Below, one piece after another: positions 6,592 through 64,000 of a stretch of 64,000 nt of DNA. Position 1 is the stretch's first letter. Each line of letters starts with the position of its first letter. The stretch lies in contig JAGNJD010000002.1 of the NCBI GenBank assembly GCA_018000835.1, positions 1,732 through 65,731 on the forward strand, written 5' to 3'. Source of the stretch: Candidatus Goldiibacteriota bacterium (GTDB lineage Bacteria > Oederibacteriota > PGYV01 > DSYL01). The translations under genes and the position numbers were made by a program. The notes under the pieces were generated by a model. It saw only the letters and a list, made by a program, of their open reading frames with translations. It was not told the origin of the DNA and made no database searches.

Positions 6592-7662
6592 TTACAATCT
6601 TTTTTCCATAACATTATACATCAAATTATCATCCACAGGAACATAGATTTTTTCGTCTTGTTTTATCTGAAAATATCTGCTGCATAATAAATTTATCTCT
6701 TCCGTTGAAATTCCAGCCCTCGATAATCTGTCCGGCATGTCAATTTTACCGGTTATCGTCTCAATGTCATCAACGTTTTTTTTGTTTTCCATTAATTGTT
6801 CCTGTATAAGAAGCGAAACTGAAACGTGTTCCCCGTGTAAATATTCTCGTGCTTTTGGAACGATGGTCATTGCATGTGCAATGGCATGTGCAATGGAAGA
6901 CGTAACCGTTTTTATTCCAACGCAGGAAATCATGCCGGAATAAATTATGTTACAATCGGTAAAAAACAACCTGTCTTCGTCGTTCAGACATTTTTTGTTT
7001 TTTTTAACTCTTTTAAAAATGTTTTTTTTTAAAATAAAGGCCAAATCTCTCGTAAAATTATCACAAAATTTTTTTTCTTTTTCATTTTTATAGAACGTCT
7101 CCGTTTCATAAAACTTGGACAGGGTATCCATAATCCCCGCTGCAAAAAAAGCCAGAGGCAGATCCATAAAAAATTCATAATCAATTATAAGGATGTCGGG
7201 AGGGACTGTGTCCAGCGTGTTAAGATAACTCCCGTCCTTATTATATATTACAGAAACCGGAGTGAAGGCAGCACAGGTTGCAGCCGACGTAGGAACATTT
7301 ATTAAACGGATTTCCGGCAGTTCTTTTTTTACGTGTTTTGCAACGTCAAGGACTTTTCCTCCGCCGGCAGCAACAAGATTTCTGATTTTTCTCTCTTTTA
7401 AAATGAGGAAAACCCTCCTGAACTCCTCGGGGCAGCATTCTCCGTTAAACATTATTTCTTCGTCAAAGATATTAACGTTTGCTTTTTTTATGAAAATTGA
7501 GCGGACGTATTTATCATAAATTACGGCAGATTTTCCGTCTGAAAGATTGTTAGTTAAGTCTTTTTCAAGGTCGCCGTTTATTTTTATTATTTTTCCGGGG
7601 AAAAGGAACTTCTGAAAGGAACTATACGAATTTTTAATTACGTCAAAATGTTGTTGTCTCAT
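6592..7662 (-). CDS. NAD(P)-dependent glycerol dehydrogenase / glycerol-1-phosphate dehydrogenase family protein (DHQS-like, metal-dependent polyol dehydrogenase)
   Basis: GGGKVLDVAK nucleotide-binding motif. PTSAATCAAF...SVIY and AAGIMDTL segments, plus LHGEHVS metal-ligand motifs typical of the GldA/EgsA(AraM) family. The stop overlaps the pnp start. Confidence 0.55.
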   Translation of the reverse strand: MRQQHFDVIKNSYSSFQKFLFPGKIIKINGDLEKDLTNNLSDGKSAVIYDKYVRSIFIKKANVNIFDEEIMFNGECCPEEFRRVFLILKERKIRNLVAAGGGKVLDVAKHVKKELPEIRLINVPTSAATCAAFTPVSVIYNKDGSYLNTLDTVPPDILIIDYEFFMDLPLAFFAAGIMDTLSKFYETETFYKNEKEKKFCDNFTRDLAFILKKNIFKRVKKNKKCLNDEDRLFFTDCNIIYSGMISCVGIKTVTSSIAHAIAHAMTIVPKAREYLHGEHVSVSLLIQEQLMENKKNVDDIETITGKIDMPDRLSRAGISTEEINLLCSRYFQIKQDEKIYVPVDDNLMYNVMEKRL

Positions 7663-63428: not shown

Positions 63429-63505
63429 TGGCGTGCCCGGGGAGATTCGAACTCCCGACCCACAGCTTAGAAGGCTGTTGCTCTATCCAGCTGAGCTACG
63501 GGCAC
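63429..63505 (-). tRNA. tRNA-Arg (anticodon TCT)
   Basis: Minus-sense gtgcccgtagctcagctggatagagcaacagccttctaagctgtgggtcgggagttcgaatctccccgggcacgcca. Anticodon loop cuUCUaa. CCA encoded. Confidence 0.85.
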
Positions 63506-63533
63506 ACTATATTTTACTTTTCTGTTCGTTAAA

Positions 63534-63609
63534 TGGCGCGCCTGGAGGGAATCGAACCCCCGCACAAGGCTCCGGAGGCCTATGCTCTAATCCACTGAGC
63601 TACAGGCGC
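63534..63609 (-). tRNA. tRNA-Arg (anticodon CCG)
   Basis: Minus-sense gcgcctgtagctcagtggattagagcataggcctccggagccttgtgcgggggttcgattccctccaggcgcgcca. Anticodon loop cuCCGga. CCA encoded. Confidence 0.8.
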
Positions 63610-63670
63610 TTGTTTTGTTTCTGTCTTTTCTTCTCTTAATCTACTTTCTCTTCTCTTTTTTCCTTTACTA

Positions 63671-63866
63671 ACCTGTTGGAGGGAATCGGTCACCTCGCGA
63701 AACGCTCCCGCGTTTCGCTCCGCGACCCCCTCGCTCGCTGTCGCTATCTCGCTATTCCTCGCTATTCGCTCGGCGCTCGCTCGCCTTTCGCCCTTTCAGG
63801 GCTTTCAGCCCCCTTACAAAACTCCCGAGGCCTATGCTCTAATCCACTGAGCTACAGGCGCTTGTT
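63671..63866 (-). other. tRNA-Arg(CCG)-derived element: intact 5' half (nt 1-38) and T-loop/3' segment separated by a ~140-nt GC-rich structured insertion
   Basis: 63826-63866 equals the 5' half of the adjacent tRNA-Arg(CCG) with one base change. 63671-63687 (cctgttggagggaatcg) resembles its T-arm/3' part. 63688-63825 is ~65% GC with perfect hairpins (gcgaaacgc-tccc-gcgtttcgc, gggct-gaaa-gccc). The start of a second copy is at 63913-64000. Confidence 0.4.
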
Positions 63867-64000
63867 TTCCTATTCTTATTGCTTTTTTATTTTACTTTTC
63901 TTTCTCTCTTTACTAACCTGTTGGAGGGAATCGGTCACCTCGCGAAACGCTCCCGCGTTTCGCTCCGCGACCCCCTCGCTCGCTGTCGCTACCTCGCTAT

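Follow-up and report, generated by a model that had tools for sequence, protein, structure and literature searches.

A tandem tRNA-linked repeat array inside a tRNA operon of Candidatus Goldiibacteriota, with related repeats in other Goldbacteria

Repeats linked to tRNA genes were reportedly described in Escherichia coli in 1978 and, to our knowledge, still have no accepted function or origin. Here we analyze a 64,000-nt stretch of DNA from a Candidatus Goldiibacteriota bacterium (the window), in which two tRNA-Arg genes border a GC-rich repeated element. The end of the window is the proximal end of a tandem tRNA-linked array that lies inside a single tRNA operon. [quoted passage not shown] Their function is unknown, save for three rRNA-operon members that bind Hfq and CsrA (PMC8144298).

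We re-examined the tyrT-tyrV locus of E. coli K-12 (NC_000913.3, 1286650–1287700; L025). It contains four copies of the RtT family (RF00391; rttR) that score 133–138 bits, three of them at a 178-bp period. Each repeat ends with AATCCTTCCCCCACCACCA, corresponding to tRNA-Tyr positions 58–76, and this end is preceded by AAGGTTCGA and a GC-rich insert of ~60 nt. The tyrT repeats can thus be described as T arms that are split after A58 by the insert, a description that was not found in PMC8144298.

The window corresponds to the reverse strand of NCBI contig JAHZTS010000322.1 (GCA_020049655.1), to which it was matched via the 622-aa CHASE2 adenylate cyclase encoded beside the tRNAs. This contig is 81,301 bp long and another 17 kb follows the window, which therefore does not stop at a contig end, a possibility that the initial annotation of the DNA had considered. 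A region of the contig read in tRNA orientation (L001) covers the array past window base 64000. It carries, all on one strand, a promoter-like site, tRNA-Pro(TGG), a short remnant, tRNA-Lys(CTT), tRNA-His(GTG), the array, tRNA-Arg(CCG) and tRNA-Arg(TCT). There is only one strong sigma-70-like site, upstream of tRNA-Pro (TTGACG-17-TATATT), and a scan of the tRNA operon found no promoter-like site within the array and no terminator-like site.

Both tRNA-Arg genes lie intact on the minus strand of the window, as had been noted before, and ARAGORN and Rfam agree on them. tRNA-Arg(CCG) (63534–63609; Rfam tRNA, 63.8 bits) is the parent of the repeat units and lies directly downstream of the array, while tRNA-Arg(TCT) (63429–63505; Rfam tRNA, 70.1 bits) is the final gene of the operon. 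Upstream of both, in the minus-strand sense, is a direct repeat with copies that are 94–100% identical. The repeating unit proposed in the initial annotation is therefore real, and its length, given there as ~242 bp, was measured as 245–252 bp. In the contig extension the array continues to at least four tandem units of this size between tRNA-His and tRNA-Arg(CCG), with no integrase within 10 kb. A 100-N scaffold gap within the array (L001 8997–9096) makes this count a lower bound.

Each unit contains a decayed copy of tRNA-Arg(CCG) that spans positions 1 to ~64. In unit 4 (63861–63610, minus strand), the repeat alignment places positions 1–53 of this tRNA-like part at 63809–63861, where neither ARAGORN nor Rfam calls a tRNA. 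Positions 1–34 are identical to tRNA-Arg(CCG), and the anticodon loop reads CUCGGGA, as annotated; the first copy of the array in the contig has an 8-nt anticodon loop (CUCUCGGA). The tRNA part had been thought to comprise only the first 38 nt, with the anticodon 3′ strand, the variable region and the T-stem 5′ strand missing. However, the unit aligns with the whole tRNA-Arg(CCG) at 83% identity across 80 nt, and all three elements are present: an anticodon-stem 3′ strand GUUUU that forms G-U pairs, a variable region GUAAG and a T-stem 5′ strand GGGGG, together with an altered T arm (CUGAAAG-CCCU). What the unit does lack is a usable acceptor 3′ strand and a CCA end.

The tRNA-like part is joined to a non-coding GC-rich module of ~120 nt. 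The GC content of the insert is 0.57–0.64 against ~0.3–0.4 in its surroundings, which bears out the compositional shift reported earlier. Continuing along the minus strand of unit 4, the altered T loop and a small hairpin H1 (GCCCU-GAA-AGGGC), seen by folding and kept in relatives, occupy 63786–63808. The conserved module head GGCGAGCGAGCGCCGAG, delimited by motif matches, follows at 63769–63785, and then a variable middle of reiterated AGCGA(G) at 63731–63768. The 3′ domain of the module (63689–63730; fold z = -4.7; 98 bits with covariance model (CM) R1) consists of GGGGG, which resembles a T-stem 5′ strand, and hairpin P, which reads GGUCGC / GGA / GCGAAACGC-GGGA-GCGUUUCGC / GAG / GUGAC. Next comes segment B, CGATTCCCTCCA (CGAUUCCCUCCA), at 63677–63688. 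Direct comparison with the tRNA identifies it as tRNA-Arg(CCG) positions 56–67, that is, the 3′ part of the T loop, the T-stem 3′ strand and 2 nt of the acceptor. The unit is completed by a conserved tail, ACAGGTTAGTAAAG (ACAGGUUAGUAAAG), at 63663–63676, whose motif is present in the window, L001 and the related loci L009, L010 and L011, and by a polypurine AT-rich spacer or leader at 63610–63662, whose last 27 nt belong to a perfect direct repeat (see below). Unit 3 runs on past the end of the window; its 3′ 139 nt (63862–64000, minus strand) include part of the middle, P (63934–63975), B (63922–63933), the tail (63908–63921) and the spacer (63862–63907).

A perfect 9-bp hairpin of 22 nt (GCGAAACGC-GGGA-GCGTTTCGC), one of the stem-loops pointed out in the initial annotation, occurs twice in the window, while none is expected in shuffled sequence. 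The GGGGG of the module pairs with CCCUC of segment B in the same fold (z = -4.7). By this pairing, the 3′ domain resembles a T arm in which the 40-nt hairpin P takes the place of U54-U55 and G57-U60 are left as a bulge. A closing helix between the 5′ end of the unit (GCCUGU) and the tail (ACAGGU) was also predicted for Arg units, is not kept in His units and was not adopted. We rejected a coding reading as well: the stop-free stretches on the opposite strand reflect GC content, no conserved reading frame was found in the units, and the indels between species are not multiples of three.

As a separate observation, the spacers that follow the ACAGGTTAG tail (63610–63662 and 63862–63907, minus strand) are near-pure purine over ~50 nt on the transcribed strand, and the same strand asymmetry is seen in the units of relatives.

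One may ask whether the units are functional tRNA genes that carry an intron or intervening sequence in the T loop, or split tRNAs. The identity of the 5′ 34 nt to the tRNA and the possible T-stem pairing of positions 49–53 with segment B would suit such genes, as would a more distant Goldbacteria locus (L014) in which tandem tRNA-Arg(TCT) copies carry a precise 80-nt D-loop insert in an otherwise intact tRNA. However, the acceptor 3′ strand is missing, with only 3 of the 7 acceptor pairs possible for Arg by manual pairing, and there is neither a CCA nor a discriminator base, which agrees with the initial view that the unit cannot fold into a complete tRNA and is not a simple intron-containing one. 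The anticodon varies between copies and species, the anticodon stem is decaying, and the units always have an intact gene for the same tRNA beside them. ARAGORN makes no tRNA call on the units and Rfam has no tRNA match at E<10; the best relative, a His unit of L022, reaches 26.4 bits against a threshold of 29. A bacterial tRNA with a group I intron is also a poor fit, as the insert sits in the T-arm region rather than in the anticodon loop and the 3′ exon would have no acceptor strand or CCA. A self-splicing insertion, which had been among the first suggestions, finds no Rfam group I or group II intron or ribozyme match at E<10, and even at permissive Rfam thresholds the units matched neither introns, ribozymes or omega-RNA/HEARO nor RtT, YrlA or tmRNA. 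We therefore regard interrupted or split tRNA genes as highly improbable. YrlA, a Y-RNA-like RNA, and tmRNA resemble the units in that a tRNA-like module is joined to another structured RNA, but their Rfam matches are sub-threshold and due to the true tRNAs (YrlA, 26.7 bits against a 69-bit cut-off), and the units have no acceptor/T-arm minihelix with CCA.

Contigs of relatives were collected through homologues of the cyclase and of a patatin gene at locus L008, and all that bear the module come from Goldbacteria according to their database source names. L008 itself (contig FWPV01010408) was found by a metagenome scan with the hairpin sequence. It contains an intact tRNA-Gly(GCC), a 60-nt spacer, the module and, directly after the same GGUGAC, tRNA-Gly positions 56–76 including CCA. 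Both L010/L011 (cyclase 82% identical) and L022 (83%) have a His-derived unit before an intact tRNA-His and an Arg-derived one before an intact tRNA-Arg(CCG). A Lys-derived unit with a diverged module sequence precedes tRNA-Lys in L013 and L024, and a Gly-linked copy lies at the orthologous position in L018 and L019, progressively decayed. These relatives have one unit per tRNA. No module was found in the more distant Goldbacteria L014 and L016 (cyclase ~60%), where the tRNA clusters are compact, and there is no synteny between the Gly-type locus L008 and the window.

In every unit, both the tRNA-like 5′ part and segment B match the neighboring tRNA. Accordingly, segment B reads CAAUUCCCGUCAC in His units, CGAGUCCCCGA in Lys units, with or without an additional UCAC, and CAAGCCCCGUUUCCCGCUCCA in the Gly type, and the junction between hairpin P and the tRNA segment is always at T-loop position 55/56. 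The tail (ACAGGTTAG; ACAGGUUAG) is common to Arg, His and Lys units of several species. A CM built on the Arg, His and Gly types detects the Lys type with an E-value of about 1e-5. The same approach gave a match in L014 (E = 0.006), which was discarded because it falls within a true tRNA-Arg(TCT) copy, on its anticodon and T arms, and not on a module.

Two side observations concern these loci. Outside the window, in the interval between tRNA-Pro and tRNA-Lys (L001 8497–8545), a remnant composed of CCGCGAAATAGCGGCGAAGTAGC, CGAGTCCCCGA and ACAGGTTGGTAA is the 3′ end of a Lys-type unit, its parts being the hairpin, tRNA-Lys positions 56–66 and the conserved tail. L024, which is 99% related to the window, has the same remnant plus one complete Lys unit. 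L014 carries on its minus strand (6700–7125) tRNA-Arg(TCT) followed by two tandem self-copies with an identical 80-nt structured insert (GCCGGC-AGUA-GCCGGC...) in the D loop; the interrupted copies are otherwise intact except for G10U, and the second is truncated. The insert and the loop differ from those of the window, yet the arrangement, tandem interrupted copies of a tRNA, is alike.

The related loci also bear on whether the array is an assembly artefact, either a chimeric join or a GC-rich contaminant. The 100-N gap within the array and the collapses that such repeats cause (L009 equals L010 minus 600 bp, and the copy number in the window versus L024 may be another case) speak for an artefact. 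However, the same tRNA junctions are present in at least seven independent assemblies (L001, L008, L010, L011, L013, L018, L022, L024), deposited at NCBI, ENA and JGI and produced by different projects and assemblers. The module is always in syntenic tRNA contexts, and its copies bear species-specific substitutions, which would be unexpected for a contaminant. An artefact, a concern raised in the initial annotation, thus has a negligible likelihood. The feature is real: a lineage-specific tRNA-linked repeat family, whose structure is likely conserved.

How does this family compare with the E. coli TLRs? Like them, the Goldbacteria units, including those of the relatives, lie inside a tRNA operon on the same strand as the tRNAs, and those of the array form tandem copies (at least four here, 1–5 per E. 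coli locus). The units combine a constant body unrelated to tRNA with a 3′ segment copied from the neighboring tRNA, and the T arm is split in the T loop in both the tyrT repeats and the Goldbacteria units. The definition of a TLR is matched in full by the Gly-type copy in L008, which lies downstream of its tRNA and whose 3′ 25 bp are those of the tRNA 3′ end including CCA. The units of the window differ in several ways. Their 3′ ends are not identical to that of an upstream tRNA; instead, the 12 bp shared with the tRNA are internal (positions 56–67), lack CCA and are followed by the conserved ACAGGTTAG tail. They also lie upstream of their cognate tRNA and carry a tRNA 5′ part, that is, a tRNA pseudogene. 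The Rfam RtT model (RF00391; gathering threshold 45 bits) finds no match on the array, searched at E<10, or on the relatives, searched at E<5. Sequence homology with the E. coli tyrT repeat was rejected, as the best local alignment was equaled by 5 of 300 shuffles. By analogy, we would therefore class the Goldbacteria element among the TLRs in kind but keep it apart from the RtT family.

The ends of the module are conserved. Between the window, L010 and L022, the head and segment B are each 100% identical and P is 93–95% identical, whereas the spacers are ~65% and the middle is 42–87% identical. The inner helix of hairpin P is 100% paired in all seven distinct sequences, compared with 40–49% in slid controls. 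Its differences are compensatory, with two pairs changed on both sides (G-C to A-U and C-G to U-A). In covariation control (a), 3 of 500 shuffles reach the observed score, in a set of seven sequences of which few are independent. Intact copies have a P loop of GGGA, GGAA or GAGA, each of the GNRA type; AGGA is seen only in the decaying L018 copy. The H1 stem is kept with other sequences (GCCCU/AGGGC, GUCCU/AGGAC, AAUCCC/GGGAUU and CCCUGAACCG/CGGUUCAGGG), in L022 as a 10-bp version. The Lys-type 3′ domain (GGCUAC/GCAG/CCGC-GAAAUA-GCGG/CGAA/GUAGCC) has another sequence and the same architecture, and all three types, Arg, His and Lys, share the fold of the 3′ domain (z between -4.7 and -6.4; Lys, z = -6.4). 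Together, these comparisons suggest that the module is likely conserved at the level of RNA structure. We grade this as likely, not proven, since there are about eight distinct sequences and palindromes can persist through templated repair at the DNA level.

The array also contains repeats suited to unequal recombination. A 62-nt perfect direct repeat, made of the last 27 nt of the unit 4 leader and tRNA positions 1–35, is also present before units 1 and 3. Through unequal homologous recombination between such repeats, units would be gained or lost and the 5′ part of a unit would be refreshed from the real gene. Such refreshing fits the gradient seen in the units, in which positions 1–34 (Arg) or 1–28 (Lys) are identical to the tRNA and the remainder is decaying. 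The anticodon varies among copies and species (CGG, the 8-nt loop, UUG and CCG). The units of the window and the Arg unit of L022 have derived changes in common, namely GUAAG and a U-rich anticodon-stem strand; the Arg unit therefore predates the split of these species. Furthermore, the His and Arg modules of one genome are 95–98% identical but differ from the modules of other genomes, which points to concerted evolution.

Differences in copy number need to be read with care. L024, 99% related to the window, has no Arg unit and a full Lys unit. L009 has no intact tRNA-His and carries a unit with a His 5′ part and an Arg 3′ part (L009 9441–9719 versus L010 8841–9719); it differs from L010 by the loss of exactly 600 bp, which is the distance between two 98%-identical modules. 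The hybrid probably reflects a collapse in the assembly and not a true deletion, and the differences between L024 and the window may be collapses too. Since each of these presence/absence cases coincides with long perfect repeats, we did not use them as evidence of mobility. The contigs L008, L011 and L013 end inside or within ~100 nt of a module, consistent with assembly breaks induced by repeats.

Several further peculiarities were seen in the leaders and spacers of relatives. In L010 (8214–9437), each tRNA or tRNA-like copy of the operon is headed by a leader of ~43 nt that ends in ...CAATCGACAAAGTATTTA, six copies in all. The leader is built of GCAA/CAATC reiterations, which look like AT-shifted versions of the AGCGA reiterations of the module. 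The interval between tRNA-His and the Arg unit in L010 (9255–9345) and L011 (337–427) holds a (GGATGA/GGATAA)n microsatellite of ~15 hexamers, which in L010 had been called as a 61-aa open reading frame. The spacers of L013 are rich in AAGGA/GGAGG, with inverted copies on both sides of each tRNA. GGA-rich RNA in the spacers of a tRNA operon recalls, by analogy, the CsrA-binding TLR small RNAs (sRNAs) of E. coli.

The family pattern could also be that of mobile DNA. One possibility is a non-autonomous selfish DNA that inserts site-specifically in the T arm of tRNA genes and is mobilized in trans, its terminal hairpins being enzyme recognition sites and the arrays secondary. Several features argue for it: the right junction is constant (T loop, 55/56) in Arg, His, Lys and Gly, the Gly copy sits at an unlinked locus, and the left side has a second, altered copy of the T loop and T-stem 3′ strand, which varies by tRNA type and resembles a 9–11-bp target duplication. 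Conserved ends, a variable middle and decaying single copies are typical of a transposable-element family, and the contigs of several assemblies break in modules (L008, L011, L013), as multi-copy DNA does. On the other hand, terminal inverted repeats are missing from the module, and at no module locus does a gene for a transposase, integrase or reverse transcriptase lie within 10 kb. A CM search of the 64-kb window and ~270 kb of related loci detected no copy away from tRNA genes. The phage, plasmid and viral collections searched gave zero matches to the module; five module patterns had no match in viral contigs, and the whole unit, compared by BLAST with phages and plasmids, matched tRNA genes by its tRNA part only. 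The GNRA loops are kept on the tRNA strand, which points to recognition of RNA and not of DNA, and modules of His and Arg from one genome resemble each other more than orthologues from different genomes do, although local gene conversion explains this as well. In our judgment selfish DNA is unlikely, though it deserves to be taken seriously. A miniature inverted-repeat or insertion sequence-derived element was rejected, because the ends GAAAGGGCG... and ...CGAGGTGAC are not inverted repeats and the CM search detects copies only in tRNA clusters. A scan of genome contigs with CGATTCCCTCCAACAGGTT returned five matches in unrelated phyla with no tRNA nearby, which by a rough estimate is about the number expected by chance.

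Another possibility, also raised in the initial annotation, is that the partial tRNA copies are att remnants of deleted tyrosine-integrase elements that had integrated in the T loop, with the GC-rich module as an element arm. T-loop crossover sites are classical for tRNA-targeting integrases, of which Ms6 is said to be an example, and the partial tRNA direct repeats here likewise start in the T loop. In L008, the 3′ end of the intact tRNA-Gly, CCA included, recurs ~190 bp further on as a perfect 25-bp repeat, an arrangement that resembles attL/attR, and the reiterated AGCGAG motifs could serve as arm-type binding sites. However, the units of the window include the tRNA 5′ part (positions 1–53), and we know of no integrase att duplication that contains this part. 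They lie upstream of the intact gene, measure only 245 bp and enclose no element body, and the 12-nt tRNA-derived segment has conserved element sequence on both sides. The genes within 10 kb of the array encode a periplasmic binding protein, a T2SSE/TPR protein, the cyclase, an HD-domain protein, NrdD/NrdG and PFK, with no integrase, transposase or reverse transcriptase on either side. Neither the adjacent tyrosine or serine integrase gene nor the repeats restricted to the tRNA 3′ part that mark integrative elements are seen here; no integrase was found at any locus examined, and the module is missing from the viral, phage and plasmid collections. Att remnants are therefore very unlikely.

The initial annotation further proposed a tRNA-derived structured RNA or a SINE-like repeat family. 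That the units are tRNA-derived and structured and belong to a repeat family is supported. Eukaryotic tRNA-derived SINEs (short interspersed elements) are likewise tripartite, with a head related to tRNA, a body that is not, and a tail. SINE-like dispersal is nevertheless not supported by the data: the head of each Goldbacteria unit copies whichever tRNA adjoins, the copies are confined to tRNA operons with none elsewhere in the 64-kb window, and no retrotransposition machinery is known or seen for them.

We then propose a model in which the units are co-transcribed cassettes of a tRNA pseudogene and a structured RNA, TLR-like in kind and amplified by unequal recombination; we assign this model a probability of roughly 0.55. 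The units would be transcribed together with the tRNAs from the single promoter upstream of tRNA-Pro. Nucleases of tRNA processing may cut them from the precursor to yield RNAs of ~200 nt whose 5′ half is tRNA-like and whose 3′ half is a hairpin. Copy number would rise and fall by unequal homologous recombination between the repeats of leader and tRNA 5′ part, and the same recombination would keep the first 28–34 nt of the units identical to the real tRNA. The head, P, B and the tail may be under selection for an RNA function, as a protein-binding or processing element, or for the propagation of the element itself.

Several points weigh against this model. Transcription and processing of the units are deduced from their position alone. 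The covariation support is modest (about eight distinct module sequences, two double-sided changes and a score reached by 3 of 500 shuffles), and in perfect palindromes compensatory changes can come from templated repair of the DNA. The copy at the Gly locus decays stepwise at orthologous positions, from L008 to L018 and then to L019, so that strong selection does not act on this copy at least. Amplification is explained by unequal recombination, but the presence of one module at an identical T-loop position in four tRNA species, one of which (Gly) carries it at an unlinked locus, is not. Finally, the units of the window fail the TLR rule of a 3′ end identical to that of the upstream tRNA.

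A natural candidate for the spread of the module to Arg, His, Lys and Gly is insertion or recombination specific to the T arm. Examination of the gene neighborhoods and large DNA scans revealed no enzyme or autonomous parent element for the module. It is tempting to speculate that the module is an RNA-structured element with specificity for the T arm, able to copy itself from one tRNA gene to another, and that such an element also lies behind the E. coli TLRs and the L014 copies, an idea we hold to be quite unlikely. Under this speculation, a constant scaffold would carry a short segment identical to the local tRNA, possibly as a guide or a mimic, and one widespread, unrecognized mechanism would duplicate tRNA genes and interrupt them at their loops.

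The Goldbacteria units thus form a family of the TLR kind outside E. coli, in an uncultivated candidate phylum. To what is described for E. coli, the Goldbacteria family adds a clear, likely conserved RNA-type structure, with a GNRA-capped hairpin placed in the T arm. It also adds one module that is combined with four tRNA species at a constant T-loop position, and a visible turnover from amplification to at least four copies at one locus to decay at another. For annotation, the family matters because its units break assemblies, escape tRNA finders and Rfam, and could pass for introns, att sites or chimeras. Thus, the family offers a comparative handle on the origin of tRNA-linked repeats and on whether such repeats are processed sRNAs or selfish DNA.

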